Shown: one piece after another, positions 37,941 through 64,000 of the stretch
How the letters are laid out: each line of letters opens with the position of its first letter
Numbering within the stretch: position 1 is the stretch's first letter
NCBI GenBank assembly: GCA_012839485.1
Contig: DUNF01000058.1
Coordinates: 1,272-65,271, forward strand
Direction: 5' to 3'
Source: Acholeplasmataceae bacterium
Lineage (GTDB): Bacteria; Bacillota_I; Bacilli_A; ML615J-28; CAG-698
Length of the DNA stretch: 64,000 bases
Program-made: the position numbers and the translations under genes
The notes under the pieces: model-generated
What the model was told of the DNA's origin: nothing
Seen by the model: only the letters and a program-made list of their open reading frames with translations
Database searches by the model: none

Positions 37941-37957
37941 TGTTTAAGGAGGATTTG

Positions 37958-47316: not shown

Positions 47317-47327
47317 GGAGAAAATTA

Positions 47328-49949
47328 ATGAAAAAATTACATGAATTAACTTTAGAAGAAAAAATTGGCCAGTTGTTTATAGTTGGTTTTTATGGCGAGG
47401 AGTTTAATAACGATTTACTTAATTTAATTAAAGATTATAAAATCGGAAATGTAATTTTATTTTCTCGTAATATTTCTGCGGTAAAACAGTTATATAAATT
47501 AAATAAAGATATCCATACTAATATGGAAAAACATTTAGGAATTATGCCTTTCATTACAATTGACCAAGAAGGAGGAATGGTTACAAGAATCTTTAATGAT
47601 GCAACTTTTTTTCCTGGGGCAATGACAATTGGAGCAACAAAGCTTGATAATGCTTATTATGTGGGGCAAAAGATGGGAGATGAGTTAAGAGCTTTAGGAA
47701 TTAACTTTAACTTAGCCCCAACATTAGATGTGAATAATAATCCTCATAATCCGGTAATTGGTGTTAGAAGTTATTCAAGCAGTGAAAAACAAGTTGCAAA
47801 CTATGGCATAGCTTATATTAAAGGGTTACAAGAAAAAGGAATTATTGCAACTGCAAAACATTTTCCTGGTCATGGAGATACAAATATTGATAGTCATTTG
47901 GGACTGCCAATAATTGAACATTCAAAAGACCGTTTAAATAGAATTGAACTTTATCCATTTAAAAAAGCTATAGCTTCAGGTTTAGATGCGATTATGAGTG
48001 CGCATATTATTTTTAAAGCATATGATAGTGAAAAACCAGCTACTTTATCTAAAGCAGTATTAACTGATCTTTTAAAAAAAGAGTTGGGATTTGAAGGTTT
48101 GATTGTAAGTGACTGTATGGAAATGAAAGCTATTGATGATACAGTTACTGCACCAGTTGGTGTTTTAGAAGGTTTACTTGCAGGGCTGGATATGGTTTTT
48201 GTAAGTCAAACACCTGCCAAACAAATGAAAGCAGTAGAACTTGTGAAGGAAGCAGTGTTAAATGGAAAGTTTCCTTTAGATTTATTAGATGAAAAAGTAG
48301 AAAAGATATTAAAATATAAAGCTAAATCATACGAACTATTAAAGAATGAATTTTTTAGTAAAACATATAATGAGCAAGAAGAAATATTGCTTAATCCAGA
48401 AACTAAAGCTAAAGCTTTAGAGATTGTAGCTGAATCGTTAACTTTAGTAAAAGGAGATAATGTAAATCCAAGTTTAAAAACTTTAGTTTTAGCTCCAGAT
48501 CCATTTGCCTCTACAATCATTGAAGATGAGTTTTCTAAAAATGATCGTTCAATTTACGATATGGTAAGATTAGAAAATAATCCTAACTTAGTTCCTTATC
48601 GAATTAAGATTAAACCTTCAAAAGAAGAAATAGATAAATATTTAGAATTAGCAAAAGATTATAAACAAATAGTTTTATGTACATATAATGCTACAATTAA
48701 CCGAGGCCAAATTGAACTTGTTAGAAAACTAAATAATTTGGATAAAAAGTTATATGTAATTAGTATGAGAAATCCTTTTGATATTTTAAACTTTAAGGAA
48801 GTTTCTAATTACTTAGCATTATATGAATACACACCTAATTCAATTAAAGTTTTAATTAGTTATTTAAATGGCGAAATTAAACCAAAAGGGAAATTACCTG
48901 TTTCTTTAAAGGAAAAAACCGAGTTTGGTGCAAGTGTTTATTTAGGTTTAGATGATTATAAATTGGAAGATAATTTAAAATATTTAGAAAAGTTAAAGAA
49001 AAATGGCTTTAGTTTTGTTTTTGTATCGATGCATATGCCTGAAGCAGGAAGTCATGTTTATGATGAGTTTTTAGCGATTAAGGATAAAGCTAAAAGTTTA
49101 GGTTTAGAGTTAATAGTTGATGTTTCTAAACCAACTTTTGATAAACACAAGATGTTTGGTGTTGATCGTATTCGTTTAGACTGGGGTTTTAGTAAAGAAG
49201 ATATCGTTGATTTAGTTTTAGATGGTTATGATATTGAACTTAATGCTTCGACTTTAACGGAAGAGTTAGTTGATTATTTAAAAGAAAGAATAGATTTATC
49301 TTTAGTAACGGTTAGTCATAATTTTTATCCAAAGAAATATACTGGGTTAAAATATGAAGATGTGAAGGAAAGAAACAACTTTTTAAACAATTTAGGTTTT
49401 AAAGTTATGGGCTATATTGCATCGCTAGAAAACAAAAGACCTCCTTTATATCTAGGATTACCTACAGTAGAAACAATGAGAAAGATGCCAGTTTTTCTTC
49501 AAAAACAAGAAATGGAACTTTTAGGTTTTTCGAAAATTTGTTTTGGAGATGCGATTATTAGCAATAAAGAATTAAAAGAGTTAACAGAAGAAAAGGAATA
49601 TTTTACTGTACCTTTAGTTTTAAAAAAGGGAATTTCAGAAAAAGAAAAAGAAATTATTAATAAAGTTCATCGTGTTAGAATTGATCAATCAGAGTATATG
49701 ATTCGTAGTACTAAATATCGCGGAGAAAAAGGAATTGAACCAAATAATACAGAGAAAAGATCAAAGTATGATATTACGATTGATAATGATTTGATGAAGA
49801 GATATTCTGGTGAATTAAATATTATGCTAACTGATTTAGAAGCCGATAAAGCAGTTAACGTAGTTGGTAGAGCAATTTTGAGTGATTTTAGTTTAGACTA
49901 TTTAAAGATGCAAATACCATTTGTTTTTGAAGTTATTGGAGAAGAATAA
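47328..49949 (+). CDS. nagZ-mupG: Fusion: GH3 beta-N-acetylglucosaminidase (NagZ-like) plus DUF871/MupG-type 6-phospho-N-acetylmuramidase (GH170)
   Basis: GH3 motifs: TIDQEGGMVTR, KHFPGHGDTNIDSHL, IVSDCM, ending at KGKLPVSL. After a 6-aa linker comes GASVYLGLDDYKLEDNLKYLEKLKKNGFSFVFVSMHMPE, a DUF871-type N-terminus, and ~340 further aa. No signal peptide. Confidence 0.75.
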   Translation: MKKLHELTLEEKIGQLFIVGFYGEEFNNDLLNLIKDYKIGNVILFSRNISAVKQLYKLNKDIHTNMEKHLGIMPFITIDQEGGMVTRIFNDATFFPGAMTIGATKLDNAYYVGQKMGDELRALGINFNLAPTLDVNNNPHNPVIGVRSYSSSEKQVANYGIAYIKGLQEKGIIATAKHFPGHGDTNIDSHLGLPIIEHSKDRLNRIELYPFKKAIASGLDAIMSAHIIFKAYDSEKPATLSKAVLTDLLKKELGFEGLIVSDCMEMKAIDDTVTAPVGVLEGLLAGLDMVFVSQTPAKQMKAVELVKEAVLNGKFPLDLLDEKVEKILKYKAKSYELLKNEFFSKTYNEQEEILLNPETKAKALEIVAESLTLVKGDNVNPSLKTLVLAPDPFASTIIEDEFSKNDRSIYDMVRLENNPNLVPYRIKIKPSKEEIDKYLELAKDYKQIVLCTYNATINRGQIELVRKLNNLDKKLYVISMRNPFDILNFKEVSNYLALYEYTPNSIKVLISYLNGEIKPKGKLPVSLKEKTEFGASVYLGLDDYKLEDNLKYLEKLKKNGFSFVFVSMHMPEAGSHVYDEFLAIKDKAKSLGLELIVDVSKPTFDKHKMFGVDRIRLDWGFSKEDIVDLVLDGYDIELNASTLTEELVDYLKERIDLSLVTVSHNFYPKKYTGLKYEDVKERNNFLNNLGFKVMGYIASLENKRPPLYLGLPTVETMRKMPVFLQKQEMELLGFSKICFGDAIISNKELKELTEEKEYFTVPLVLKKGISEKEKEIINKVHRVRIDQSEYMIRSTKYRGEKGIEPNNTEKRSKYDITIDNDLMKRYSGELNIMLTDLEADKAVNVVGRAILSDFSLDYLKMQIPFVFEVIGEE

Positions 49950-50866
49950 TGAAGAAAGCAATGATAGGTGTTGATGCTGGTGGCTCTTCAACAAAACTAG
50001 CCTTGTTTTTAGAAGATGGGACGATTGTAAAGAAACTAAAAGCTAAGGCAGGATCTAGTGCATCAGTTAAATCAGCTTTGGAGAATGTAGAAGAAGGGGT
50101 TTATAAGTTGTACGAAGAAGTTAAAAATGAGTATGACTTAAAAGCTATCGTTATTGGTTTAAGTGGACTTAAAGCTAATTCTAAAGAATCTTTAGAAAAG
50201 TTAGTTTCTAATTTAAAAGCAAAAACTAATCTTGATGTATTATTAAACCCTGATACTTTAATTGCTTTATACTCTCATTTAAAAGATGAATATGAAGAAG
50301 GAATTGTTGTTATATCTGGTACTGGTCATGCTTCTTTTGGTTTAAATAAAAATGGTAAATCAATGATGATTGGTGGCTGGGGGTATATGATTTATGAAAT
50401 CGGTAGTGCCTTTAGTGCTGTTCAAGATTTAATTATTAAATCAGTTAGGCATTATGAAGAAGAAGGTAAAGTCTATCCGTTAGCCCAATCTTTAATAAAA
50501 GCAATTGGTTTAAGCACAATAGATGACTTAAGAGTATTTATGTATCATAATGATAAAAAAGAGATTGCAAGTTATGCTTATTTAATTACTGATGGAGCTA
50601 AAGCTGGAGATAGAATAGCCTTAGAGATTTTAGATGATGCAAGTAAAGGTATTGCTAGGTCAATTAAATTACTTGTAAAGCATTTAGAATTAAAGGAAAC
50701 TGCTGTTTTGGGATTTACAGGAGAATATATTAAAAACTCTAAAATCTTACAAGAATTAGTATTAGAAAAATTACAGAAAGAGAAGATAAAGTTAAAATAT
50801 TTAGAAGGTAGTATTGACCCTATTTATGGAGCCTATTACCTAGCTAGGAAGAAAGGCAAAATATGA
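49949..50866 (+). CDS. BadF/BadG/BcrA/BcrD-type ATPase; putative GlcNAc/MurNAc kinase (MurK-like)
   Basis: IGVDAGGSSTKLALF phosphate-1 motif and VISGTGHASFG. The family includes the clostridial MurNAc/GlcNAc kinase MurK. Confidence 0.65.
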   Translation: MKKAMIGVDAGGSSTKLALFLEDGTIVKKLKAKAGSSASVKSALENVEEGVYKLYEEVKNEYDLKAIVIGLSGLKANSKESLEKLVSNLKAKTNLDVLLNPDTLIALYSHLKDEYEEGIVVISGTGHASFGLNKNGKSMMIGGWGYMIYEIGSAFSAVQDLIIKSVRHYEEEGKVYPLAQSLIKAIGLSTIDDLRVFMYHNDKKEIASYAYLITDGAKAGDRIALEILDDASKGIARSIKLLVKHLELKETAVLGFTGEYIKNSKILQELVLEKLQKEKIKLKYLEGSIDPIYGAYYLARKKGKI

Positions 50867-51993
50867 AAGTTATTGGTTTAATGAGTGGGACATCTTTAGA
50901 TGGTGTAGATGCTGCATTAGTAGAAATCAAAGGTAAAAAAGTTCAACTTTTGAATTTTGTTACTTATCCTTATCCTAAAGAGTTCAAAGCTAAACTAAAA
51001 AAGAATTTAAATAACGAACAAGCAAAATTAGAAGAAATCTGCAGTTTGAATTTTGAACTTGGAGATTATTTTGTTTACGCAATTGATGAAGTTTTAAAAG
51101 ACAAATATAGTTATGATGATATTGATTTAGTTGCAAGCCATGGTCAAACAATTTGGCATAATCCTAAAGGATTAAAAGGCCAAAGAGCATCTACCTTACA
51201 AATAGGAGAAGCAGCTGTAATTGTGGCTAAGACAAACATCACAACAGTATCTAATTTTAGAGTTAAAGATGTAGCCTTAGATGGTGAAGGTGCACCACTT
51301 GTTCCTAAAACTGACTTTTTGCTTTATCATAACAATAAGAAAAACATTGTCTTACAAAATATTGGTGGTATTGGTAACTTAACATATTTACCAAAAGATG
51401 CTAAGGAAGATGAAATTTTGGCGTTTGATACTGGCCCAGGTAATGTAATGATTGATTACTTTATGCACAAGTATTATGGCAAAGCTTATGATGAAGATGG
51501 TAAAAAAGCCTTTAAAGGAATAATTATTAAACCTTTATATGATTATTTAATGAGTGATAAATTTATAAAAAAAGCTCCACCTAAGAGTACAGGTAGAGAG
51601 CAATATAATGAAACGTTTTTTGAAAGTTTAGTTAAGAAGTTCAATTTAGACCAATATAGTAAAGAAGATGTTATTTGTACAGTTACAAATATTACAGTAG
51701 ATTCTATTGTCTATAACTATGAGAAGTACTTAAAAGAGATTGATTTAGTTGTAGTTACTGGAGGAGGATCACATAATAAATACGTAGTATCCGAGTTAGG
51801 AAAAAGACTAGGAGTTGAAGTGGTTACAGGAACTGACTACGGAATTGAAAATGATGCTAAGGAAGCTTTAAGTTTTGCTTATTTAGGATATTTAAGTTTT
51901 AACTATAAAACAGGAAACTTGAAATCAGTTACTGGAGCTAAAGAAAATACTATTTTAGGAAATATTACTTATGGAAGGTATCGCCATGGTTGA
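50863..51993 (+). CDS. anmK: Anhydro-N-acetylmuramic acid kinase
   Basis: MKVIGLMSGTSLDGVDAALVEI, SHGQTIWH, FDTGPGNVMID; 376 aa. Confidence 0.85.
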   Translation: MKVIGLMSGTSLDGVDAALVEIKGKKVQLLNFVTYPYPKEFKAKLKKNLNNEQAKLEEICSLNFELGDYFVYAIDEVLKDKYSYDDIDLVASHGQTIWHNPKGLKGQRASTLQIGEAAVIVAKTNITTVSNFRVKDVALDGEGAPLVPKTDFLLYHNNKKNIVLQNIGGIGNLTYLPKDAKEDEILAFDTGPGNVMIDYFMHKYYGKAYDEDGKKAFKGIIIKPLYDYLMSDKFIKKAPPKSTGREQYNETFFESLVKKFNLDQYSKEDVICTVTNITVDSIVYNYEKYLKEIDLVVVTGGGSHNKYVVSELGKRLGVEVVTGTDYGIENDAKEALSFAYLGYLSFNYKTGNLKSVTGAKENTILGNITYGRYRHG

Positions 51994-52897
51994 TTTAAGT
52001 AAACTAACAACAGAAAAAAGAAATAAGAATACTTATGATATTGATAGTTTAGATAGTTTAGGAATTATCAAGAAAATCAATGAAGAAGATAAACAAATTG
52101 CTTATGAAATTGAAAAGCATTTAGAAGAAATTGCTTCAGTAATTGATGATGTAGTAAAAAGTTTTCTAGAAGGTGGAAGACTTATTTATATTGGTGCTGG
52201 TACTAGTGGAAGGTTAGGGATTTTAGATGCAGTTGAATGCCCACCTACATTTAGTGTGGATTTTGAGCAAGTTCAGGGGTTGATCGCAGGGGGAGAGAGA
52301 GCATTTATCAAAGCGGTAGAAGGAGCTGAAGATAATAAAGAGTTAGCTGTAAAAGATTTAAAAGCAATTAATTTGTCTGATAAAGATACTTTAATTGGTT
52401 TAAGTGCTAGCGGTAGAACCCCTTATGTAGTTTCTGGCATAGAATATGGCAATAAAATTGGTGCCAAAACAGCTTCAATTGCAACATCTTTAAATAGTGA
52501 AATTGGTAAGATTGCGAAGAAGAAAATTGAAGTTGTAACTGGTGCTGAAGTTTTAACCGGTTCTACCAGACTAAAATCAGGAACTGCTCAGAAGATGATT
52601 TTAAATATGATCTCAACTGCTAGTATGATTCAAATGGGTAAAGTTTATGAGAACTTAATGATTGATGTTAACCCTACAAATGAAAAGTTAGTTGCAAGAG
52701 CATTGTCAATTATTCAAGATATTACAAAAGTAGAAAAAGAAGAAGCTGCTTTGAAATTAAAGCGATATAAAACAGTAAAAAAGACTATTTTTCATTTACT
52801 AACTAAGGAAGAATCTTTAGAAAAAATAGATTATTACTTAAATAAAAATCATGGACATTTACGAAAGGCAATAGCTAGTTATGGTAAAAAGTGTTGA
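51986..52897 (+). CDS. murQ: N-acetylmuramic acid 6-phosphate etherase
   Basis: LTTEKRNKNTYDID, IYIGAGTSGRLGILDAVECPPTF and TGSTRLKSGTAQKM are SIS-domain MurQ signatures. ATG at 51986 follows GGAAGG; the track start is 51971. Confidence 0.85.
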   Translation: MVDLSKLTTEKRNKNTYDIDSLDSLGIIKKINEEDKQIAYEIEKHLEEIASVIDDVVKSFLEGGRLIYIGAGTSGRLGILDAVECPPTFSVDFEQVQGLIAGGERAFIKAVEGAEDNKELAVKDLKAINLSDKDTLIGLSASGRTPYVVSGIEYGNKIGAKTASIATSLNSEIGKIAKKKIEVVTGAEVLTGSTRLKSGTAQKMILNMISTASMIQMGKVYENLMIDVNPTNEKLVARALSIIQDITKVEKEEAALKLKRYKTVKKTIFHLLTKEESLEKIDYYLNKNHGHLRKAIASYGKKC

Positions 52898-53615
52898 TTT
52901 AAAAAATGGCGATTATACTTTAAGAGGTATATATAGTAAAGGTGAAAGTGAAAAGATAGTAATTATGTTTCATGGCTATACTGGTCATAAAGTAGAACAT
53001 AATGGAATGTTTCGAAGTTTATCAAGGATTTTATTAAAAGAAGATATCTCTTCTTTAAGATTTGACTATTATGGCAATTTTGATAGTGATGGTGAGTTTA
53101 CTGATTTTACCTTTGATACACTATTTAGCGATGCTAGATGTATTATTAAATACGCTTATGATTTAGGCTATAAGGAAGTTGTTTTATTAGGCTATTCAAT
53201 GGGTGGCGCTTTAGCTTTAGCAGTTGCTCATGAAGAAGCAAGAATAAAAAAGGTAGTTGTTTGGAATCCTGCTGGTAATATTAATGAGCTTGTGAAAAGA
53301 AGATATGAGATTACTGAAAAGGATGAAAAAGGTAATACAATTACTTTAAACTTTTCTTTATCAAAAGCGATGTTTGATTCTAGTTTTAAATATAAGTGGT
53401 ATGAGCTAGCAAGTAAATATCAAGGAAAAGCTTATGTAATTAAAGGCGCTAAAGATTTAGCTGTGCCTTTGTTATATAACGATAAATATTTAGAAGTGTT
53501 AAAAAATAAGGTTTCTTTTATTATCAAAGATGGAGACCATGGTTTTGATAATAAAAAAGATCAAGAGTTATTATATAAGAAAACGATAGAATATATTAAG
53601 GAGGAAGAAAGTTGA
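52881..53615 (+). CDS. Alpha/beta-hydrolase (serine esterase/peptidase)
   Basis: Nucleophile elbow GYSMGGA, an HG oxyanion motif (MFHGYTG), and a C-terminal DGDHGF. Confidence 0.65.
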   Translation: MVKSVDLKNGDYTLRGIYSKGESEKIVIMFHGYTGHKVEHNGMFRSLSRILLKEDISSLRFDYYGNFDSDGEFTDFTFDTLFSDARCIIKYAYDLGYKEVVLLGYSMGGALALAVAHEEARIKKVVVWNPAGNINELVKRRYEITEKDEKGNTITLNFSLSKAMFDSSFKYKWYELASKYQGKAYVIKGAKDLAVPLLYNDKYLEVLKNKVSFIIKDGDHGFDNKKDQELLYKKTIEYIKEEES

Positions 53616-54400
53616 AAATTATAGTATGTATTAAACAAGTACCTGCAAGTACTGAGGTAGAAATAGATCCCATTACAGGTAACTTAATTAGAGATGGTCG
53701 AAATGCGAAGATGAATCCTTATGATTTATATGCGATTGAAACAGCTTTAAGAATTAAAGAGTTCAATGGTGCTCATGTAGCTACAATCTCAATGGGTCCA
53801 CCTTCAGCTTTAGCAGTATTGAATGAATCTTTATGGATGGGTTGTGATGATGCTACAATCATGACTGATCGTAAATTTGGGGGAGCTGATGTTGTAGCAA
53901 CTAGCTATACTTTAGCTCAAGGAATTAAATTAATAGGCGGAGCTGATTTGATTATCTGTGGTAAACAAACAACAGATGGTGATACTGCTCAAGTAGGACC
54001 GGAAATAGCTGAGAATTTAAAGATTCCTCATTTATGTTATGTAGATAAGATTATCGAAATTAAGGAGAAATCAATTGTTGTTCAAGTAGATATGGATCAT
54101 ACTGAAGAAGTATGGGAGATTGATTATCCGTGTTTAATTACGGTAAATAAAGGTATTTTCACACCAAGACTTCCTTCTTATAGAAGAAGCAAAAAGTTTA
54201 AAGATTATGAAATTAGACAAATTCATTTTAGTGATATGGTTGATCAAAATGAAGCGCATTATGGTCTAAAAGGGTCGCCAACACAAGTTGAAAGAATGTT
54301 CCCGCCAATTAAAAATACTGATAAAGAATTATGGGAAGATACTGATGAAAATTTAGCTTTGAAATTGTCTAACAAATTAAAGGAAATGAAGGTAGTATAA
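53612..54400 (+). CDS. etfB: Electron transfer flavoprotein beta subunit (LctB-like)
   Basis: MKIIVCIKQVP..., NPYDLYAIE, ICGKQTTDGDTAQVGP. TTG start 7 nt after AGGAGG. Confidence 0.85.
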   Translation: MKIIVCIKQVPASTEVEIDPITGNLIRDGRNAKMNPYDLYAIETALRIKEFNGAHVATISMGPPSALAVLNESLWMGCDDATIMTDRKFGGADVVATSYTLAQGIKLIGGADLIICGKQTTDGDTAQVGPEIAENLKIPHLCYVDKIIEIKEKSIVVQVDMDHTEEVWEIDYPCLITVNKGIFTPRLPSYRRSKKFKDYEIRQIHFSDMVDQNEAHYGLKGSPTQVERMFPPIKNTDKELWEDTDENLALKLSNKLKEMKVV

Positions 54401-54401
54401 G

Positions 54402-55604
54402 ATGGCTAAAAAAGGAATTATTGTAGTTAACAAGAGTAACGTAAATAAAGATTTAATTGAAGATTATGTTAAGAGTTGTCCTTTTAAGGCGATTGTAGCT
54501 AAAGATGGTAGTGTTGATGTTGATCAATCTGCTTGTAAGATTTGTCGAATATGTGCTAAAAAGTTTGCTGATGTTTTTAAGTTTCAAGAAATTGAAGAAG
54601 AAAAGATTAATAAAGATGAGTGGGTAGGAATTACTGTTTTTATTGAACATGATGGAAATAAAATTCACCCAGTATCATTAGAATTAATCGGGAAATCTAA
54701 AGAGCTTGCAAAGGTAACTGGACATCCAGTTTATGCTATACTTTTTAGTGATGATGCAAATAAATTTACCGACACTTTATTAGCTTATGGAGTTGATAAA
54801 GTATACTCATATGAGCATAAACTACTAGGACATTTTAACGTAGAATATTATGTAGAAGTGATGGCGGATTTTGTTTCGAAAGTGAAACCTTCAACAATCC
54901 TTTATGGTGGTACAGCAATTGGTAGAAGCTTTGCCCCAAGAGTTGCAGCAAGACTTAAGACTGGTTTGACTGCTGACTGTACAATTTTGGATATGAAAAA
55001 GAATACAGATTTAGTCCAAAATCGTCCTGCTTTTGGTGGTAACATTATGGCTGGAATTATTTGTGAGAACACAAGACCACAAATGGCTACAGTTCGTTAT
55101 AAGATCTTCAAAATGCCAGAAAAGGTTAAACCTTTTGGTGCTGTTGAAAAGATGAGTTTGAAAGATATTAAGTTTAAAACTAATATGAGATTAGTTGAAA
55201 CAAAAGAAAAGCCAAAAGAAATTGATATTTCTGAGGCAGATACAATCGTATGTATTGGGAAACCATTTAAAACTAAAGAACAAATTCAAATGGCAAAAGA
55301 ATTTGCTGATTTAATTGGGGCACAACTTGCTTGTACTAGACCACTTGTAGAGGCAGGAGTTATGCCAGCTACAAGACAAATTGGCCTAAGTGGTAGAACA
55401 GTTTCGCCTAAACTTCTTGTTTGTTTGGGTATTAGTGGAGCTGTTCAATTTACTGCGGGAATGAAAGGCAGTGAAGTAGTTTTCGCTGTTAACAATGATA
55501 AAAATGCAGCTATTTTTGACTTTGTTCATTATGGTTTAGTAGGGGATATTTTTACAATACTACCTGAATTAATTAAGACTTTGAAAGGGGAAGAAGATGT
55601 ATAA
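54402..55604 (+). CDS. etfA: Electron transfer flavoprotein alpha subunit with N-terminal ferredoxin-like [4Fe-4S] domain (LctC-like)
   Basis: N-terminal Cys pattern SCPF...CKICRIC. The Etf-alpha core has GGTAIGRSFAPRVAARL, RPAFGGN and GISGAVQFTAGM. Confidence 0.8.
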   Translation: MAKKGIIVVNKSNVNKDLIEDYVKSCPFKAIVAKDGSVDVDQSACKICRICAKKFADVFKFQEIEEEKINKDEWVGITVFIEHDGNKIHPVSLELIGKSKELAKVTGHPVYAILFSDDANKFTDTLLAYGVDKVYSYEHKLLGHFNVEYYVEVMADFVSKVKPSTILYGGTAIGRSFAPRVAARLKTGLTADCTILDMKKNTDLVQNRPAFGGNIMAGIICENTRPQMATVRYKIFKMPEKVKPFGAVEKMSLKDIKFKTNMRLVETKEKPKEIDISEADTIVCIGKPFKTKEQIQMAKEFADLIGAQLACTRPLVEAGVMPATRQIGLSGRTVSPKLLVCLGISGAVQFTAGMKGSEVVFAVNNDKNAAIFDFVHYGLVGDIFTILPELIKTLKGEEDV

Positions 55605-56988
55605 AAAAGTGACAAACAAAGATGTTTTGGCTTTAGAGAAATTAATTGATAAAACAAGAGTTTTTATTTATGATGATTCAATTTCAGAATATTCAAAAGA
55701 TGAACTTGGTACTTTAATTGGTAAGCCAGAAGTGATTGTGAAAGTAGAATCGACTAAAGAAGTATCTAAAGTTGCTAAATATGCTTATGACAATAACATT
55801 CCATTAACTGTAAGAGGAAGTGGAACTGGTTTAGTTGGGGCATGTGTACCATTATATGGTGGTATTGTTTTGGATATGACTTTAATGAATAAAATTATTA
55901 ATTTAGATGAAGAAAACCAAATTTTAGAAGTTGAAGCGGGAGCATTACTAATGGATATTGCTGATTATACTAAAGCAAGAGGTTATCTATATGCTCCAGA
56001 TCCAGGCGAAAAATCGGCAACAATAGGTGGTAATATTACAACTAACGCTGGTGGTATGAGAGCCGTAAAGTATGGAGTTACTAGAGATTGGGTCCGTGCT
56101 TTAGAAGTAGTTTTAATGGATGGAACAATTTTAGAGTTTGGGAAGAAAGTTGTAAAAGATACTTCAGGTTATTCTTTGAAGAACTTAATTATTGGTAGTG
56201 AAGGGACACTAGCAATTGTAACTAAAGCTTATTTAAAGGTAGTTTCACTACCTGAAAAAAGTTTAAGTTTACTTGTTCCTTATGCTAGTTTAGAAAAAGC
56301 TATTGAACAAGTTCCGAAGATTTTGAATTCAGGAACTAATCCAACAGCAATTGAGTTTTTTACAAGAGAAGCTTTAGAGTATTCAGAGACGTTTTTAGGT
56401 AAAAAGTTCCCAGATCAAAACAGTCCTGCTTATATTTTACTTACTTTTGATGGTTCGCAAGCTGAGGTAGATGAGAATGCTAAGAAGGCGTCAGAACTAT
56501 TAATTAACAAGTTTGAAGCAGTAGATGTTTTGATTGTTGATACTGATGAAAGAAACGAAGATGTTTGGAGTGCTAGGAGTTCTTTCTTAGAAGCTATTAA
56601 AGCTTCTACACCTTTAATGGATGAGTGTGATGTAGTAGTGCCACGTTCTGAAGTGAGCGATTATATTAAATACACTTATGAGTTAGAAGAAAAGTATGGC
56701 TTAAGACTTCCTTCATTTGGCCATGCTGGTGATGGTAATTTACATATTTATATTTGTAAAGATGACTTATCAGATGAAGAATGGGAAGTGAAACTAGATC
56801 TAGTATTCCATGATTTATATAAGAGAGCTAAAGAAGTTGGTGGTTTAGTATCAGGAGAACACGGAATTGGCTATGCTAAGATGGAATATTTAAAAGAATC
56901 ATTAGGAGATGTGCAAATTAATTTAATGAGAAATATTAAAGCAGCATTCGATCCTAAAAATCTTTTAAATCCAGGAAAAATAGTGTAA
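55597..56988 (+). CDS. FAD-linked oxidase, GlcD/LctD-type (D-)lactate dehydrogenase
   Basis: VRGSGTGLVG, GGNITTNAGGMRAVKYG and GEHGIGYAK are FAD_binding_4/GlcD motifs. Overlaps etfA by 8 nt. Confidence 0.75.
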   Translation: MYKKVTNKDVLALEKLIDKTRVFIYDDSISEYSKDELGTLIGKPEVIVKVESTKEVSKVAKYAYDNNIPLTVRGSGTGLVGACVPLYGGIVLDMTLMNKIINLDEENQILEVEAGALLMDIADYTKARGYLYAPDPGEKSATIGGNITTNAGGMRAVKYGVTRDWVRALEVVLMDGTILEFGKKVVKDTSGYSLKNLIIGSEGTLAIVTKAYLKVVSLPEKSLSLLVPYASLEKAIEQVPKILNSGTNPTAIEFFTREALEYSETFLGKKFPDQNSPAYILLTFDGSQAEVDENAKKASELLINKFEAVDVLIVDTDERNEDVWSARSSFLEAIKASTPLMDECDVVVPRSEVSDYIKYTYELEEKYGLRLPSFGHAGDGNLHIYICKDDLSDEEWEVKLDLVFHDLYKRAKEVGGLVSGEHGIGYAKMEYLKESLGDVQINLMRNIKAAFDPKNLLNPGKIV

Positions 56989-57007
56989 ACGCTTTTTAAA
57001 AAGCGTT
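56988..57007. terminator. Hairpin at the end of the MurNAc-lactate operon (weak as an intrinsic terminator)
   Basis: AACGCTTTTT/AAAAAGCGTT perfect palindrome directly after the stop codon. No downstream T run on the + strand. Confidence 0.4.
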
Positions 57008-57046: not shown

Positions 57047-57075
57047 TTGACTTTTATACAGAGATAATGTAGAAT
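57047..57075 (+). promoter_or_regulatory. SigA promoter of the giant lipoprotein gene
   Basis: TTGACT, 17 nt, TAGAAT. ~75-nt leader, then AGGAGG at 57136-57141. Confidence 0.6.
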
Positions 57076-57151
57076 ATATGTGACCATATGTAATAGTATG
57101 GCGTATTATATAATAATGATATAAACATTCAGATTAGGAGGTAAAGTGTTT

Positions 57152-60100
57152 ATGAAAATGAGAAGATTTTTCGGTGCACTTTTGATGCTTGTATTTGCCT
57201 TAACTGTGGTAGGCTGTGTAAGCAACAAGAAGTACAACGATGTTGCTGAACAGCTAAACAACGCTCAAACTCAATTAGACGCAGCAAATGCACAATTGAC
57301 AGTATTAGAAGAGCAAAAAGCTGCTCTTGAGTTGCAACAACAAAATCTAAACGCAGAGAAGGCAGCATTAAATGCTAGAATCGCTCAACTTGAAGAATTC
57401 GAAGGTTTATCTGCCGAACTAGAAGAAGAACTAGCTCAATTAAACGAAGAGAAAGAGGCTCTTGATGCCAGAATAGCGGAAACAGAAGCTGATTTAGCAG
57501 CTCTTCAAGAGTTAGTTGCCGCACTAAGCAATAGACCTGTTGCGCCGACTTCATTAGAACTATTTTTAATCGGTTCAACGCTTGTAGGAACATCTACAAA
57601 TGCAGCTGAGCCTGATATTGACTATGTAGTTACACCAGCTGGCGCATATACTGGTTTATATTTTGAGGTTGAAAATCCTGAGATTGCAAGTGTTGATAGC
57701 TTAGGTCGTGTTACTGGTTTAAAACCTGGTAAAACTAAGATCAATGCTTGGTCTACACTAGATCCAAGTGTTAAGGATTCAGTTGATTTTGAAGTTATCG
57801 AAGCTGGAGCAGATTTAGATATCGTAATCGCTGCAGTTAACGAAATTTATGCTCAACTAAATAGATCATATGTTGCTGAAGATTTAGCATTAATGCATGC
57901 TTCAAACCCTTCAGTAAAGATCTCATACTTAAAAGGATCAGAAGTTATTGCTGAGTACGTAGATGGCGAATTAACACGTGGTACAGGTTACTACGCATAC
58001 GAAGCACCTGCAGTAGATAAACTTGAAAAAGTTACTATTAAAGGTGAATATGGCGCAAACAACGTACAACACAATATGGAACTTACTCTATTCGTTGTTG
58101 CTGATTTAGCAAACAATGCTTTCAATAGAGTACAAATGGCAAGAGATATCGTTGAATCTTACCTACTTCCTTATACATCAGAAGTAGAAAAAGTTTCAGC
58201 TGATTTAGCTTTAGAGGCTGAAATTGCTGGCGTAGAAATTGTATACACAAGCAGTGCTAAACAAGTTATTAGCAATGAAGGTGCATATGTACGTCCACTT
58301 GATGACACTAAAGTTAACTTCCAAGTTATGTATAAGTATCAAATCCCTGGTGGTGAATTATACACTGAATCAGCAGCATATGACGTATATGCTAATGGAT
58401 ATACTGCAGATGAAAAAATGGACTACATCGTTAATGAAGGGTCACTTGCTTTCTTAAATGGATATGCAAGCAACGTTAACATTAACTTACCAGCTGCAGA
58501 TGACAAATTTGATGCTAAATTAACTTATGTTTCAGATAAACCAGAAGTTTTTGATAACGCTGGTAAATATGCTAATCAAGAATTAGCAGAAGCTACTGTA
58601 GTTACTTACACAGTTAGTTTCGAATACCTAGGAGAAGTTTTAGGAACTAGAGAAGTTGCAGTTACTGCAAACTTACCTTCAGTTGCTTCAAAAGCAGCTA
58701 ATGCTTTTGCTAACAACAACGAAGTTCCTGCTCATTTCCCTTATGGTGTTAAAGGTAGAGCAGGCGGAAATGCTCTTCCAGGACTTGTAGCTACACAAGC
58801 AGTTGGCGAAGATACAGCTAACGTTGCTTGGGAAGCACTAGAACCTGAATTATGGGCAGACGGCTTTGTATTAAATGCACAATATTTAAGATACCGTGAA
58901 ACTGCTTTAAAAGCTACATTCACAAATGCAGCTGATGAAACAGATAAAGCTGAATTAGAATTAGTTATAAATATCGGTGCTGGAAAAACTAAAGATGATA
59001 TTATTGTTGCAGGACGTTTCTCACAACAAACATCTACAGTTTATAAAGAAAAATGTGATACATTAGCATTATTCTCATACTTTGATCCAGTTGTTGGTGT
59101 TTTAAATATGGCATTCCCAACATATTACTCAGGTTATATGTTCTCAATTCAAGGCGAATTCAGACAAGCTCCAAACAATCCTGATATTGAAATTTTCTAC
59201 CAAGGAGAAGATGCTTCTAGAAGCAACTTATATATCAGACATGACTCAGTAATTTATGTTACTGGTAAAAAAGACAATGGCGAAGGTATCTTTGATAATA
59301 GTACTTTAATTCAAGGTACTGGTGGTAACTGGCCTGTATTATATGTAAACAATTATACAGAAACAGTAAAAGTTCCACTTGCTGTTCACGTAACAGGCAA
59401 TGGTTCAGATGGAAATCCAATTGTATCAACTGGTTTCTCTCGTGAATTTGCTTTAACAGTTGACGGTTACAGAACTGTTTTCATTGTTAACTTAGAAACA
59501 GGTGAAGTAGTATCTGGTAATGGTAAGAGCGGAATTCAATTCGCTTACCCAGCAGGAACAAAATATCTTGAACTTCCTGCAAACCATGCTATTTACTGTC
59601 CAAAAACACAATCAAATAATGCTATTTACAATGGCGTATTCTGTGTACAAGGAACTCATCTAGAAGTTAATCATCATGATTTACATCCAAAGAACAGTTA
59701 TTTCATTGATACAGCTAATGCACAATTAGAAAACGCTGAAGCTTCAATTGCTAAGTTAGAAGCTGGTGAAGCATTAGGCGAAGAAGATGCTAACCCAGTT
59801 ACAGCTTTAGCAACAGCTAATGCAAGAGCAAACAATGCTAGATTATCAGATGCTGAAAAAGCTGGATTTAATGCCGCAAAATACGCTGAACTAGCTGGTC
59901 GTTATGCTTTATTATTCAATGAAGAATTACAAGCATTAAAAGATAGCAAAGGTGAAATTGGCTTCTATATGGAAGACTATGTAGTAGCATTACAAGCTGC
60001 TTATGATAAGTATGATGCTTTACCTGAAGCTGCTCAAGATGCTGTTCCATTAAAAGCTTGGTTACTTGCTGAAAAAGCACTTTACTTAGATACAAACTGG

Positions 60101-63100
60101 ACTATTACATATAACTTAAATGGTGGTTCAATTTATACTAATGAGAAAGCAAGAATTATTGATTTATTCTTTGATGATTTATATCAACATTTACAAGAAC
60201 AAAACTTTAATGCTTGGGTATCTCAAAAGCATGATTATGATGGAAATATTACACAAGCTGATGTAACTCATACATTACCATCACTTGCAGAGTTTAAAAA
60301 TCCAGATTCAGAAGATCCAAACGCATTTATTAACTTAATGAAAGGTGACGATGGAAATTACTTCGTATCATATCAAACAAAAGATCCAGATCACTTCGCA
60401 TTAGAGTTCTTAATTAAATTATATAAGAACATTGATGGAACTATTAATGAAGATTATAAGAAGTTAGAAGTTGGCGATAGACACTTCTTTAACAACAAAA
60501 AATATGGCCACTGGGCTGAATTAATGTTAGTTATGGAAGAAACATTCCTTGCAGGAACTTGCCAAATGAACGGTTATACTTCTATTAGAGATATTTATAA
60601 TAGAGTTGGTTTACCTGTTGCTCAATTCCTAGAAGGAAAAGATGCAGAAGGAAATAAGACATTTAAATATGCTCAAGATAGAGTAGGTTGGGGCTCAACT
60701 GTATATGCAACACAAGCTGACATTGCTTCATGGGTTGCTTCATACCGTCATATGACTCAATATATCTTCAATATGGCATTATCAACTGGTCAAACTATTG
60801 ATAATCCTGTAATTCCTCAAAACGTATACGTTATTCCTGAAGCTGAAGCTGCAGCTCAATTAAACGATGGTGTTGCTAACTTATACAACGTTGCAACTGT
60901 TGATTTCAATGTTCCAGCTCCAGTAAAACCTTACTCAGTATTTGATGGTTGGTATATGGATGCAGAATTAACTCAACCAGTTGTATGGACTGTTGATGGC
61001 TTAGGACAACAAGACGTTCAAGTATATGCTAAGTTTAGTGGAGATCCAGCTTATGCTAATAAAGTTACTATCGCTGCAGATCCTGCAATCGAAGTTAATG
61101 TACCTTATGGTGACAAATTAGCAGTTCCAGCTGTTCCAGCTCCAGCAGGCAAAGTTTTTGTAGGTCTATATGAAGATGCTGCATTAAACAATGCTTATGA
61201 CTTAAATACAGCTGTTTATGCACCTGTTACTTTATATCCTAAATTTGTAAATGCTGCAGATGTTTACGTTGTAGAATTCGTTTCTAACGTAGAAGGAGTA
61301 GCAATCGCAAATCAAATAATTGAAGTTGCTGCTGCTGATAAGAAAGCAGTTCAACCTGCAATTGTTAACCCAGGATATGAATTAGTTGGTTGGTATAAAG
61401 AAGCTGCATTTGAAAACTTATATAATTTTGCAGACGATGTTGCTGGTAACTTAAAACTATATGCTAAATGGGCAGTAAGTTTAGAAGTTTCATTTGATAC
61501 TGGTTTATTAGGAGTTACAATTCCTACTCAATCATTATTACCTGGAGAAAAAGCTACTCAACCTGCATTAGCTTATGAAGGTTATTCAGTTGAAGGTTGG
61601 TATACAGAAAAAGCATTTGAAAACAAATTTGATTTTGCTGTAGCTCCAACTGCAAGCGTAAAATTATATGCAAAATTAGTTATTAATCAACATACATTAA
61701 CATTTACAGATGAAGGTACTGCATTAGCTCCATTCACTGGAAACTATGGTGCTGCTATTGTATTCCCTGCTGACCCTGTAAAAGAACACTATGTATTTGA
61801 TGGATGGTATTATTTAGATGCTGAAGCAAATGAAGTTAAATTTGTTGCAACAGCTATGCCAGATGCAAGTTTAGCATTATATTCTAAATATGTTCCATAT
61901 CAATATACAATTACATTAGTTTCTAAGAGTCTTAATACATATCATTATAGTAAAGACTTATTACTAATGGAATTATTCGCAGATTATCACGAATTCTTAG
62001 GACGCACAGATTCTCTAACAGACTTCGTTCATGGTGCAGGTCTAACTGAAGGTTATGACGGTCCATGGCAATCAGTTAAGAAATTCTACAAAGCTAATAG
62101 AAGAGACGTTGATGATTCATTAGGAGTATTCGTATCTGATTCTAGATATCACGATAAATGGTTAGCATTCTTTGACCATGTAGAATACCTAGTTAGAAAA
62201 GCTAATCCAGCTCAAGGATTCTGGAGCTCAGAATGGCTTGGAAACTTAAGATTCCCTCAATGGATTAAAGGACAATCAATTATCGGTAATGCCACAAATA
62301 GAAACATTATTCCATTTACTTCAGCTGAAATTAAATATACTGTTGAAGATGGTGCAATTGAATTACCAGAATTATGGACAGTTGTTCCTATGTCATTAGG
62401 TACATTTGAAGGCTGGTATGAAATGACTCCTGAAGGATTAGAAGTTGTTACATCTATTCCAGCTGATGCTACTGGCGATATGACGCTTTATGCTGCTTTC
62501 GCTGCTCCTAAATTTGAAGTAGAATATTATGACGGAGCTTCATTATTAGAAAAAGAAGTTCTAAAAGAAGGTAAGAAGATTACTTTTGTTAAACCTGAAA
62601 AAGCTAACCATACATTTGAAGGTTGGTTCACAGATGCCGGATTAACACAAGCTTATGACGCAAGTGCTCCAGTTACAACTGATTTAGTTCTATATGCTAA
62701 CTTCGTATTAGAAAATAGAACATTAACATTCAATTCTAATGGTGGAGATGAAGTTGCTGCTATTACAGTACCTCATGGAACTCAAGTTCTAGCACCAGCA
62801 GATCCAGCAAGAACTGGATATACATTTGCAGATTGGTTTGCAGATGCTGACTTAACAGAAGCATACGCATTCCCAGTTAACTTAGAAGCAGATACAACTG
62901 TTTATGCTAAATGGAATGCAAATCCAATCAAGATTTCATTCGATCCACAAGGCGGATCAGCTGTAGCTCCTATTGATACAGAGTACGATGCTATTGTTCC
63001 AGCTCCAGAAGCACCAACACAACTTAACAAAGCATTTGCTGGTTGGTATAAAAATGCTGCATGCTCTGAAGGCGAAGAATATGATTTTGCTTTACCAGTA

Positions 63101-64000
63101 TCAGCACTTGCAGACTTCACGCTTTATGCTAAATGGGTACCAGCTCCAAGAACTGTTACATTTAATACATTAACTGATGAAGTTACTGTAGATCCTGTAG
63201 TAGTAGATCATGGTACAGCTGTTGCTGAACCAGCAGCTCCAATAAGAGAAGGATACACATTCTCAGCATGGTATACAGAAGCTTCATTAGCTACACTATA
63301 TGACTTTAATGATCTAGTAGTAGCAGATATTACACTTTATGCTAAATGGACTATTAAACAATATAACGTAACATTTGATGATAACCATGGATCAACAACA
63401 ACTGTTTCAGTTGAACACGGTTCATTATTAGATGTTCCTGCACCACAACCAGTATGGGTTGGTCACGACTTTGGTGGTTGGTACAAAGATCAAGAATGTT
63501 CTGAAGGACAACAATTTAACTTTGCTACTGAACAAATCAAATCAGACTTAACATTATACATTAAATGGAGTGTAACTCAAATTACATTAACATTTAACGT
63601 TGATGGCGGATCAGCAATTCCAGCTGTAACTCAAGATTACAACTCATCATTTGCTAAACCAGAAGATCCAACTAAAGAAGGATATACTTTCGATGGATGG
63701 TTCGAAGCTGATTTAGTAACTCCATTTGCATTACCTGCTAACTTAATTGCAGATGCTACAGCATATGCTAAGTGGACAATTACACAAACTAAACTTACTT
63801 ATGAAGTAAATGGCGGTTCACCAATTCCTGAAGATTTAGGCGATTGGAATAGAACAATTAACGCTCCAGCAGATCCAACAAAAGTTGGTTATGACTTCAA
63901 GGGTTGGTATAAAGATGCTGAATTTGCAGAAGCATTCGCATTCCCAGTTGATTTAAAAGTTGACACAAAGATTTATGCTAAATGGGATATTCAACAAGTT
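57152..64000 (+). CDS. Giant surface lipoprotein (at least 2283 aa, 3' end outside window): coiled coil, Big_2 domain, ~1000-aa unassigned region, then tandem Listeria-Bacteroides (Flg_new/InlB B-repeat-type) repeats
   Basis: Not in the supplied ORF track because it has no stop in the window. ATG at 57152 is 10 nt after AGGAGG. I translated the frame (position mod 3 = 2) by eye to 64000 and saw no stop; I re-checked lines 58021, 59041, 60001, 61021, 62041, 63001 and 63961. N-terminus MKMRRFFGALLMLVFALTVVGC (lipobox). Heptad-like AQLTVLEEQKAALELQQQNLNAEKAALNARIAQLEE. Big_2-like PEIASVDSLGRVTGLKPGKTKINAW. Repeats end in LYAKW. Confidence 0.85.
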   Translation, partial: MKMRRFFGALLMLVFALTVVGCVSNKKYNDVAEQLNNAQTQLDAANAQLTVLEEQKAALELQQQNLNAEKAALNARIAQLEEFEGLSAELEEELAQLNEEKEALDARIAETEADLAALQELVAALSNRPVAPTSLELFLIGSTLVGTSTNAAEPDIDYVVTPAGAYTGLYFEVENPEIASVDSLGRVTGLKPGKTKINAWSTLDPSVKDSVDFEVIEAGADLDIVIAAVNEIYAQLNRSYVAEDLALMHASNPSVKISYLKGSEVIAEYVDGELTRGTGYYAYEAPAVDKLEKVTIKGEYGANNVQHNMELTLFVVADLANNAFNRVQMARDIVESYLLPYTSEVEKVSADLALEAEIAGVEIVYTSSAKQVISNEGAYVRPLDDTKVNFQVMYKYQIPGGELYTESAAYDVYANGYTADEKMDYIVNEGSLAFLNGYASNVNINLPAADDKFDAKLTYVSDKPEVFDNAGKYANQELAEATVVTYTVSFEYLGEVLGTREVAVTANLPSVASKAANAFANNNEVPAHFPYGVKGRAGGNALPGLVATQAVGEDTANVAWEALEPELWADGFVLNAQYLRYRETALKATFTNAADETDKAELELVINIGAGKTKDDIIVAGRFSQQTSTVYKEKCDTLALFSYFDPVVGVLNMAFPTYYSGYMFSIQGEFRQAPNNPDIEIFYQGEDASRSNLYIRHDSVIYVTGKKDNGEGIFDNSTLIQGTGGNWPVLYVNNYTETVKVPLAVHVTGNGSDGNPIVSTGFSREFALTVDGYRTVFIVNLETGEVVSGNGKSGIQFAYPAGTKYLELPANHAIYCPKTQSNNAIYNGVFCVQGTHLEVNHHDLHPKNSYFIDTANAQLENAEASIAKLEAGEALGEEDANPVTALATANARANNARLSDAEKAGFNAAKYAELAGRYALLFNEELQALKDSKGEIGFYMEDYVVALQAAYDKYDALPEAAQDAVPLKAWLLAEKALYLDTNWTITYNLNGGSIYTNEKARIIDLFFDDLYQHLQEQNFNAWVSQKHDYDGNITQADVTHTLPSLAEFKNPDSEDPNAFINLMKGDDGNYFVSYQTKDPDHFALEFLIKLYKNIDGTINEDYKKLEVGDRHFFNNKKYGHWAELMLVMEETFLAGTCQMNGYTSIRDIYNRVGLPVAQFLEGKDAEGNKTFKYAQDRVGWGSTVYATQADIASWVASYRHMTQYIFNMALSTGQTIDNPVIPQNVYVIPEAEAAAQLNDGVANLYNVATVDFNVPAPVKPYSVFDGWYMDAELTQPVVWTVDGLGQQDVQVYAKFSGDPAYANKVTIAADPAIEVNVPYGDKLAVPAVPAPAGKVFVGLYEDAALNNAYDLNTAVYAPVTLYPKFVNAADVYVVEFVSNVEGVAIANQIIEVAAADKKAVQPAIVNPGYELVGWYKEAAFENLYNFADDVAGNLKLYAKWAVSLEVSFDTGLLGVTIPTQSLLPGEKATQPALAYEGYSVEGWYTEKAFENKFDFAVAPTASVKLYAKLVINQHTLTFTDEGTALAPFTGNYGAAIVFPADPVKEHYVFDGWYYLDAEANEVKFVATAMPDASLALYSKYVPYQYTITLVSKSLNTYHYSKDLLLMELFADYHEFLGRTDSLTDFVHGAGLTEGYDGPWQSVKKFYKANRRDVDDSLGVFVSDSRYHDKWLAFFDHVEYLVRKANPAQGFWSSEWLGNLRFPQWIKGQSIIGNATNRNIIPFTSAEIKYTVEDGAIELPELWTVVPMSLGTFEGWYEMTPEGLEVVTSIPADATGDMTLYAAFAAPKFEVEYYDGASLLEKEVLKEGKKITFVKPEKANHTFEGWFTDAGLTQAYDASAPVTTDLVLYANFVLENRTLTFNSNGGDEVAAITVPHGTQVLAPADPARTGYTFADWFADADLTEAYAFPVNLEADTTVYAKWNANPIKISFDPQGGSAVAPIDTEYDAIVPAPEAPTQLNKAFAGWYKNAACSEGEEYDFALPVSALADFTLYAKWVPAPRTVTFNTLTDEVTVDPVVVDHGTAVAEPAAPIREGYTFSAWYTEASLATLYDFNDLVVADITLYAKWTIKQYNVTFDDNHGSTTTVSVEHGSLLDVPAPQPVWVGHDFGGWYKDQECSEGQQFNFATEQIKSDLTLYIKWSVTQITLTFNVDGGSAIPAVTQDYNSSFAKPEDPTKEGYTFDGWFEADLVTPFALPANLIADATAYAKWTITQTKLTYEVNGGSPIPEDLGDWNRTINAPADPTKVGYDFKGWYKDAEFAEAFAFPVDLKVDTKIYAKWDIQQV
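60890..64000 (+). repeat. Tandem coding repeats (~70-75 aa, ~210-225 bp period) inside the giant lipoprotein
   Basis: About 13 units with the pattern (V/L)TF...GG......P..P.(K/R)(E/V)GY.F.GW(Y/F).....(A/E)..F......D..LYAKW. The DNA motif TATGCTAAATGG or a variant recurs near 61462, 62905, 63125, 63346, 63565, 63770 and 63975. Confidence 0.8.

Follow-up and report, generated by a model that had tools for sequence, protein, structure and literature searches.

A giant lipoprotein with a rare conserved cassette adjoins the N-acetylmuramic acid catabolic cluster of an Acholeplasma-like bacterium

Introduction

The closest described catabolic systems are the NamZ/NagZ/AmiE-MurQ salvage pathway of Bacillus subtilis and the scavenging of N-acetylmuramic acid (MurNAc) by Tannerella forsythia (PMC8054146; bioRxiv 10.1101/2021.12.02.470905). 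Both have the same adjacent core as the locus presented here, namely NamZ, a GH3 NagZ, a MurNAc kinase-type enzyme and MurQ. This locus lies in a 64,000-nt stretch of contig DUNF01000058.1 (GenBank assembly GCA_012839485.1, Acholeplasmataceae bacterium), referred to as the window at its full length. Its last gene, on the forward strand from position 57152 to the window end, encodes a giant lipoprotein. The gene class, a lipoprotein with Flg_new repeats, is ordinary; out of the ordinary are a rare conserved cassette without structural neighbour and the strictness with which, in this Acholeplasma-like and presumably wall-less lineage, the gene is linked to MurNAc catabolism.

Free-living Acholeplasma showed the fastest consumption of dead bacterial cells in isotope probing, and in RNA stable isotope probing they dominated the rapid assimilation of dead E. 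coli cells; the genetic basis was not given (PMC4628116). In the literature searched, no paper was found that links Acholeplasma to peptidoglycan catabolism of the MurQ/AnmK type, and none that describes the cassette protein family. The giant gene had been noticed in a first-pass annotation made from the sequence alone, and its claims are taken up below together with the results that bear on them.

Results

Reading frame and start signals

The frame starting at ATG 57152 comprised 2283 codons (6849 nt) up to the last base of the window. Full translation gave zero stops, and none had thus been overlooked in the first-pass annotation. The chance of an open reading frame (ORF) of 2283 codons was calculated as p ~1e-70, with ~7% stops among random codons at this composition. 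The stop lies beyond the window; the complete gene is ~7.5 kb long (~2400–2600 codons), and the window holds the first 2283. As had been presumed, the ORF was absent from ORF lists because ORFs running off the end of the source go unlisted. The gene and its start signals are as follows.

57047..57075, plus strand: sigma-70-like promoter candidate TTGACT-17-TAGAAT, 10/12 consensus match
57136..57141, plus strand: Shine-Dalgarno sequence AGGAGG, 10 nt before ATG 57152 and 16 nt before ATG 57158
57152..64000, plus strand: 5' part of the giant lipoprotein gene, from translation; full-length relatives have 2410, 2550 and 2948 amino acids (aa)

The AGGAGG was found where it had been reported. An alternative start, ATG 57158 (MRRFF, second Met), corresponds to the annotated start in relatives, and the lipoprotein precursor is the same from either codon. 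The promoter sequence exists as described, but the scan found 4 promoter-like sites in this region where chance alone would give 2.8, so that it amounts to a consensus match and no more. At 56988-57007, a perfect palindrome of 20 nt (AACGCTTTTTAAAAAGCGTT) begins on the last base of the stop codon of the preceding FAD-oxidase gene. It was not accepted as a terminator, having no T-tract and no call in the terminator scan; a role as operator or as weak terminator is possible.

Total GC content of the giant gene was 0.36 (0.34–0.375 per kb), which replaces the ~47% of an earlier hand-counted sample. GC content at third codon positions (GC3) was 0.166, compared to 0.16–0.19 in the neighbouring genes. 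The gene is therefore native, and horizontal transfer on GC grounds was rejected. Total GC exceeds that of the neighbours because the protein is rich in alanine.

We also considered an artefact, be it a pseudogene, a chimeric assembly or collapsed repeats, since the window stops inside a repeat array and the 3' end is out of view. Against this stand the 2283 stop-free codons and a GC3 like that of the neighbours. Tandem Repeats Finder (TRF) detected no DNA tandem repeats across the gene, and the plain Flg_new units had a median protein identity of 32% (maximum 48%). Assembly collapse of the repeats, which the first-pass annotation had named as a risk, was rejected for these two reasons. Moreover, complete colinear orthologues occupy the same position in three independent assemblies (ENA, JGI; JGI contig Ga0116243_10000944 is syntenic with the window), and a fourth, partial copy was found on an Acholeplasma sp. 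contig of a metagenome-assembled genome (MAG) that ends inside the gene. The artefact explanation is effectively refuted already, and its remaining probability is negligible.

Domain architecture and anchoring

From N-terminus to repeat array, the following parts were delimited (all on the plus strand).

57152..57217, plus strand: lipoprotein signal peptide, aa 1–22, MKMRRFFGALLMLVFALTVVG|C, lipobox VVG|C with Cys22
57224..57535, plus strand: heptad coiled coil, aa 25–128, rich in Ala/Glu/Leu/Gln, from 3.5-residue periodicity, composition and weak SMC-type matches
57542..57799, plus strand: Big_2 Ig-like domain (PF02368), aa ~131–216
57800..58978, plus strand: Ig-like (aBig_2-type) array with helical linkers, aa 217–609, with clear modules at aa 335–415 and 432–507
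58979..59701, plus strand: conserved all-beta core domain, aa 610–850 (~240 aa), alignment A3
59702..60094, plus strand: helical segment, aa 851–981, AlphaFold2 (AF2) helix from aa ~850, present in ~29 relatives
60095..61036, plus strand: Flg_new unit 1 with an alpha/beta insert of ~230 aa, aa 982–1295, alignments A5/A6
61037..61891, plus strand: Flg_new units 2–5, plain, aa 1296–1580
61892..62500, plus strand: Flg_new unit 6 with an insert of ~140 aa, aa 1581–1783
62501..64000, plus strand: Flg_new units 7–13, aa 1784–2283, array running past the window end

The N-terminus has the make-up of a lipoprotein signal, with a charged n-region, a hydrophobic h-region and a lipobox of the type [LVI][ASTVI][GAS]C. 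The lipobox Cys was conserved in >=90% of 33 relatives, in agreement with the signal peptide read by the first-pass annotation, and a lipobox was present in most homologues of the fetched loci. The protein is thus predicted to be lipid-modified at Cys22 on the outer face of the cytoplasmic membrane. The genes lgt and lspA were not found in the window.

The coiled coil, also named before, was borne out by the periodicity of L/I/V/M residues in aa 25–130 (power 1.92 at 3.5 residues; <=0.24 at every other period tested). Not all family members share it: the homologue of L008 has it, and the homologues of L004 and L006 begin directly with Ig domains. The Big_2 domain that follows was likewise recovered as a weak and partial match (26.2 bits against a cut-off of 22.8; aa 169–200), and 29 of the 33 relatives carry it. 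For the Ig-like array, aBig_2 (PF20578) scored 17.4–23.5 bits in this protein, against a cut-off of 27; at the homologous position it was detected in 32/33 relatives (E <= 0.001; best E = 3.4e-28). Local jackhmmer runs recovered the internal repeats aa 335–415 and 432–507. The core is marked by the signature NxG..D..S..D..GGNW..FFVN..FDGYR.GFVAD.DGKV.G..IPAGGYG..K.Q, and the helical segment behind it (aa 851–981) had no Pfam match.

Counting the YAKW-type unit ends gave 13 Flg_new units, the number estimated in the first-pass annotation for its Listeria-Bacteroides-type repeats. Flg_new (PF09479) matched with 459.4 bits (cut-off 27, E = 4.9e-141) in 12 HMM stretches, and TIGR02543 with 192.8 bits (cut-off 20.95). 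In unit 1, the insert is placed between the first strand (TITYNLNGG) and the FDGWY...VYAKF half. The insert of unit 6 is a shorter paralogue of it, since the A6 profile matches aa 1591–1794. About 1000 aa of the central region had been described as lacking any motif. The region resolves into Ig-like modules, the core, the helical segment and an insert-bearing Flg_new unit. Nor does the unassigned stretch reach aa ~1250 as claimed: it is shorter, because Flg_new unit 1 with its insert starts at aa ~982.

The C-terminal end was judged from full-length relatives in the same genomic position (94, 90 and 67% identity; 2410, 2550 and 2948 aa), which carry 1–3 more repeats and a helical tail of ~65 aa, so that at least 130 further aa are to be expected beyond the window. 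Their C-termini had no LPXTG, transmembrane segment or hydrophobic tail, and those of P0001 and P0002 end with ...AQADLVPAP/S. Pfam detected no GW, LysM or SLH wall-binding domain in the window protein or its relatives. The protein thus shows no feature of sortase, GW, LysM, SLH or choline-binding wall anchoring, with the C-terminus, which the window lacks, taken from the relatives. Since their ends are devoid of LPXTG and transmembrane segments and Pfam adds no wall-binding domain, attachment is predicted to be solely by the N-terminal lipid, as the first-pass annotation had proposed in preference to LPXTG or GW anchoring.

Repeat number is polymorphic: the 94%- and 90%-identical orthologues (P0001, P0002; L001 10001-17653) differ by two Flg_new units (2410 versus 2550 aa). 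The 67%-identical orthologue (2948 aa; L002 966-13979) has extra C-terminal beta-helix-like repeats. In L002, a 1344-aa ORF without Pfam match lies between the giant gene and the gene of a zinc alcohol dehydrogenase (Zn-ADH).

The conserved cassette

An exhaustive search with aa 215–1290 as query against 1.84 billion representative proteins yielded 54 representatives. The cassette, consisting of Ig-like (aBig_2-type) modules, the ~240-aa beta core, the helical segment and the insert-bearing Flg_new unit, thus defines a rare, small protein family. The core was present in ~38 representatives and the unit 1 insert in ~25. Flg_new was found in 17/33 relatives only, and the shortest family members, of ~1190 aa, stop immediately behind the insert unit. 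The family is hence defined by a cassette made up of the N-terminal ~1300 aa, to which the long repeat tail is a lineage-specific addition. Word-indexed homologue searches gave 1 match for the central region and 0 for the core alignment, and did not recover the family found by exhaustive search. Recurrent domains among the relatives were aBig_2, Big_2 and Flg_new; no recurrent catalytic domain was found in the 33 relatives.

Multiple sequence alignments for structure prediction were built from the family representatives (A6 is A5 minus three rows taken from locus translations). Two confident AF2 models of the central region, for which structure prediction had been suggested, were obtained. The core model (pLDDT 78 overall, ~90 for aa 660–850) shows ~12 strands followed by a helix; its first 60 residues, including two invariant Asp, are of low confidence. 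The model of the insert unit reached pLDDT 84 and pTM 0.84.

Neither core nor insert had a known neighbour. In Foldseek searches of the PDB and BFVD with the core, the best E values were 0.05–0.06, with TM scores <=0.17 (PDB) and <=0.23 (BFVD). The matches to cupredoxins, a phage spike and USP7 were at noise level and were discarded. For the insert unit, the only Foldseek match was the InlB B-repeat 2y5p (target TM 0.60, rmsd 2.5 Å, prob 1.0). This match covers the split Flg_new scaffold, which hence has the B-repeat fold, and not the insert; the ~230-aa insert itself had no Foldseek neighbour. Neither sequence nor profile searches of the PDB returned anything meaningful for the central region, the core, insert 1 or insert 2. 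By these models and searches, core and insert are conserved domains with no homologue of known structure and no Pfam family.

The first-pass annotation had considered that the central region might hide a lytic domain and had proposed a scan for Flg_new, Big_2, leucine-rich repeats (LRR) and catalytic families. Flg_new and Big_2 were found, LRR and catalytic families were not. Pfam and NCBIfam gave no catalytic family in the window protein down to E = 0.1–10, and Foldseek gave no relevant catalytic match for core or insert (E never <0.05). The protein falls into none of the known families of peptidoglycan hydrolases and lytic transglycosylases (GH23/25/73, SLT, MltA-3D, RlpA-DPBB), nor into amidase_2/3, CHAP, NlpC/P60, M23 or SpoIID. 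Core and insert profiles did not recur in any other ORF of the window. These searches lent no support to a hidden lytic enzyme, though an enzymatic role of the two modules, which have no known structural neighbour, is conceivable.

Linkage to the MurNAc catabolic cluster

The giant gene lies directly downstream of one gene cluster, assigned by Pfam/NCBIfam and synteny.

45595..56988, plus strand: NamZ, GH3(NagZ)-MupG, BadF-type kinase, AnmK, MurQ, hydrolase, beta and alpha subunits of electron-transfer flavoprotein (ETF), GlcD-like flavin adenine dinucleotide (FAD) oxidase

Loci for comparison were retrieved from GTDB genomes by two peptide patterns taken from the core domain alone (6-sequence alignment). 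The scan returned 11 loci, of which L007 (2.7 kb) had no flank, leaving 10 informative ones. In all loci that retain the immediately upstream gene (10/10), the homologue was located directly downstream of the cluster and on the same strand. The run from AnmK or beyond was visible in 8 loci as AnmK-MurQ-alpha/beta hydrolase, followed in 6 by ETFbeta-ETFalpha-FAD oxidase. For L004 and L009, nothing of the cluster but its ETF/FAD-oxidase end is retained. L012 and L013, the two most distant syntenic loci, lack the ETF/oxidase module, and the homologue there comes directly after NamZ-GH3-MupG-AnmK-MurQ-hydrolase. Overall, synteny with the partner cluster holds in L001–L006 and L008–L013.

Giant homologues were 24–36% identical in the nine distant loci and 82% identical in the close Acholeplasma sp. 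locus L003. With AnmK identities of 51–61%, the nine distant loci are deeply diverged. Downstream genes were not conserved (Zn-ADH for the window, a Big_2 protein of ~800 aa in one subclade only). The adjacency outlasts sequence divergence, loss of the ETF/oxidase module and turnover of the downstream genes, as a functional link would lead one to expect. This makes the earlier link to peptidoglycan catabolism much stronger than adjacency alone. The further statement that the gene directly follows peptidoglycan-catabolic operons stood as far as the same conserved cluster is concerned, but the immediate neighbour is the GlcD-like FAD oxidase with ETF subunits and not a hydrolase. The spacer between FAD oxidase and giant gene is 163 nt in the window.

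The best genome match was Acholeplasma sp. AS08sgBPME_237 (core 84%; neighbouring genes 88–96%). Other matches were to 'Tenericutes bacterium ADurb.BinA124' and to Bacilli or Bacillota MAGs.

The wider island

The ~48 kb from ~15.7 kb to the window end read, by the predicted functions of their genes, as a peptidoglycan/amino-sugar utilisation island. Besides the partner cluster, the island has two sets of ATP-binding cassette (ABC) transporter genes, GH20, DUF5696, a GNAT-like protein below cut-off and a GH3-NagB fusion. Because of its lipobox, NamZ is predicted to be surface-exposed. MurQ scored 398 bits (NCBIfam cut-off 255), and the kinase of the cluster is a BadF-type, MurK-like sugar kinase. 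A surface lipoprotein is thus found in conserved linkage with glycosidase, transporter and catabolic genes for one glycan, like the surface glycan-binding proteins of a polysaccharide utilisation locus (PUL). At the upstream end, four genes were found.

15758-17032: Orn/DAP/Arg decarboxylase-type enzyme
17032-17919: Peptidase_M19 dipeptidase
17919-19016: beta-lactamase-fold PF00144 protein
19980-21263: GHL10

The genes at 15758-21263 could degrade peptidoglycan stem peptides and glycans, and together with the genes downstream this run suggests a single ~48-kb island for peptidoglycan utilisation.

Several further genes of the island were noted. The genes of ETF-beta, ETF-alpha and the GlcD-like FAD oxidase (53612-56988) come next after those of MurQ and the hydrolase. 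They look like a dedicated D-lactate dehydrogenase/ETF module, which would have an obvious substrate here in the D-lactate that MurQ releases. Two unusual fusions without signal peptide were observed, one of GH3 (NagZ-type) with MupG (6-phospho-N-acetylmuramidase; 47328-49949) and one of GH3 with a glucosamine-6-phosphate isomerase domain (37940-40219). The alpha/beta hydrolase at 52881-53615 is of the Hydrolase_4 type, with no NCBIfam model above cut-off, and lies between MurQ and the next gene in 8/8 fetched loci reaching far enough upstream; it may be an uncharacterised pathway step.

A second large lipoprotein (41277-44462; 1061 aa, lipobox LLFGC) has three N-terminal Big_2 domains, beyond which several hundred residues had no Pfam match. 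Among the ABC permease genes are those of a 1086-aa solute-binding protein with an N-terminal extension of ~670 aa before SBP_bac_1 (23910-27170) and of a 1317-aa membrane-anchored DUF5696 protein (31689-35642). Outside the island, two RNA features were found.

13378-13412, minus strand: L31-Firmicutes ribosomal-protein leader
14677-14772, plus strand: small bacterial signal recognition particle (SRP) RNA

SRP RNA, L31 leader and a GC content near 0.30 are consistent with an Acholeplasma-like host within Bacillota/Mollicutes. Acholeplasmatales are wall-less, and from affiliation and MAG names the host is presumably wall-less as well.

Discussion

From its gene context, we lean towards reading the giant lipoprotein as a surface capture protein for peptidoglycan, cell-wall debris or walled cells that serves the peptidoglycan-utilisation island. 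The protein would be exported, lipid-modified at Cys22 and held outside the cytoplasmic membrane. Coiled coil and Ig-like chain would form a stalk that lifts the cassette off the membrane, and the cassette would be the functional head with which the cell surface captures walled bacteria or pieces of peptidoglycan. The lineage-specific array of at least 11 further Flg_new/B-repeat units would add reach and multivalency. Captured material would be trimmed by NamZ, a lipoprotein exo-muramidase, together with further glycosidases of the island, and the products would be imported by its ABC systems. We infer from the gene context that the protein binds peptidoglycan and shares the work with NamZ, and that the repeats serve as a stalk or for avidity. 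The ecology agrees with a capture protein, free-living Acholeplasma being the main rapid assimilator of dead bacterial cells (PMC4628116). Several points weigh against such a protein. LysM, SH3b, SPOR, PG_binding, GW and CBM families were not detected in it, and core and insert are without structural neighbour in Foldseek. Wall-lessness of the host is deduced from MAG names. The syntenic loci all belong to a single broad lineage (Acholeplasma/Tenericutes/Bacilli MAGs), and part of the synteny may therefore be inherited gene order. Finally, a spacer of 120–220 nt and a promoter-like site part the giant gene from the cluster, which weakens the case for co-transcription.

The same conserved context would also suit a surface enzyme, in which core and/or insert are a new peptidoglycan-cleaving domain (endo-muramidase, lytic transglycosylase or amidase) that carries out the first extracellular step feeding NamZ and AnmK. 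The island has the exo-acting NamZ and the cytoplasmic NagZ, MupG, AnmK and MurQ, and no endo-glycosidase or MurNAc-L-Ala amidase was recognisable among the scanned ORFs; these are only part of the window ORFs, however, and an amidase could be encoded elsewhere. AnmK implies anhydro-MurNAc substrates, the product of lytic transglycosylases. Core and insert are kept wherever synteny holds, and neither has a known fold. In a 16-sequence alignment of diverse members (A3), three Asp of the core are invariant, at aa ~636, 645 and 771 (D37, D46 and D172 of A3), as are two Asn, but invariant Asp, Asn and Gly in a beta-sandwich equally suit a structural Ca2+ site or a lectin, two of the Asp are in the low-confidence first 60 residues, and no Glu, His, Ser or Cys is invariant. 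As Pfam, NCBIfam, PDB profile search and Foldseek gave no similarity to hydrolases or lyases either, we regard a surface enzyme as unlikely. A generic adhesin or surface coat, mediating attachment to host, biofilm or other cells or acting as a protective layer, would make the position next to the MurNAc cluster a matter of inherited gene order. Adhesins and surface-coat proteins of Bacillota typically have architectures of Flg_new, Big_2 and coiled coil. The strain-variable repeat number (2410 versus 2550 aa), the promoter-like site of its own behind a 163-nt spacer and the origin of all syntenic loci from related lineages fit this explanation. It is nevertheless rather doubtful: the adjacency persists at 24–36% identity, after loss of the ETF/FAD-oxidase module and full downstream turnover, which is the pattern of selection for linkage, and the conserved part is the unique cassette and not the generic repeats.

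As for its significance, the locus offers a concrete basis for necromass feeding by Acholeplasma: an island of ~48 kb for peptidoglycan sugars and stem peptides that closes with a conserved surface lipoprotein. A cassette able to bind or cleave peptidoglycan would be a new fold, for recognition or for catalysis, acting on the most abundant polymer of bacteria. In that case the feeding of a presumably wall-less cell on the walls of other bacteria would have an explanation, which would matter for the turnover of necromass in digesters, manure and guts. Were the protein an adhesin only, it would be an ordinary giant repeat protein. A bolder proposal combines these elements: a wall-less Acholeplasma-like organism with a peptidoglycan-utilisation island, whose lipoprotein provides, by two domains of unseen fold, at least one of them a new peptidoglycan-cleaving enzyme or recognition fold, the missing extracellular first step for harvesting or attacking walled bacteria. 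In this full form the proposal appears improbable to us.

Among known proteins, the repeat array places the giant lipoprotein with the InlB B-repeat/Listeria-Bacteroides proteins (PF09479, TIGR02543, 2y5p), since it has 13 units of this kind, one of which, as modelled, superposes on the InlB B-repeat. NCBI would probably name it 'InlB B-repeat-containing protein', the name given to weak relatives. Two of its units differ from those of B-repeat proteins in holding inserts of ~230 and ~140 aa without known counterpart. Unlike internalins, it has no LRR domain by Pfam and no LPXTG or GW anchoring. Membership among the internalins InlA, InlB and InlH was rejected, since the scores of the InlA and InlH models were far too low (NF033189, 250 versus 1600 bits; NF033188, 185 versus 1050 bits) and the matches span the B-repeats only. 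With the large surface lipoproteins and adhesins of Mollicutes it has in common attachment by lipid only, very large size and strain-variable repeat number. No homology to characterised mycoplasma adhesins was detected, however, and the context in the window is catabolic and not host-associated. The only NCBIfam mycoplasma model that matched was TIGR04523, by a weak coiled-coil match (E = 0.001, 17 bits against a cut-off of 270).

In B. subtilis and T. forsythia, we know of no giant surface lipoprotein of this cassette family in the salvage systems. Compared to these systems, the pathway of the window adds AnmK, MupG and the D-lactate dehydrogenase/ETF module, and if the host is wall-less it would serve nutrition and not wall recycling. 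By analogy of function, the giant lipoprotein probably most resembles the surface glycan-binding lipoproteins of PULs (SusD/E/F-type in Bacteroidota; multimodular proteins of Gram-positive PULs), with domains unrelated to theirs. They are likewise lipid-anchored and built of Ig-like or beta-sandwich modules, and their genes likewise stand beside glycosidase, transporter and cytoplasmic catabolic genes for one glycan. The giant lipoprotein differs from SusD/E/F and carbohydrate-binding module (CBM) families in having no sequence or structural similarity to them, in that the presumed glycan is peptidoglycan, and in a host that is probably wall-less.

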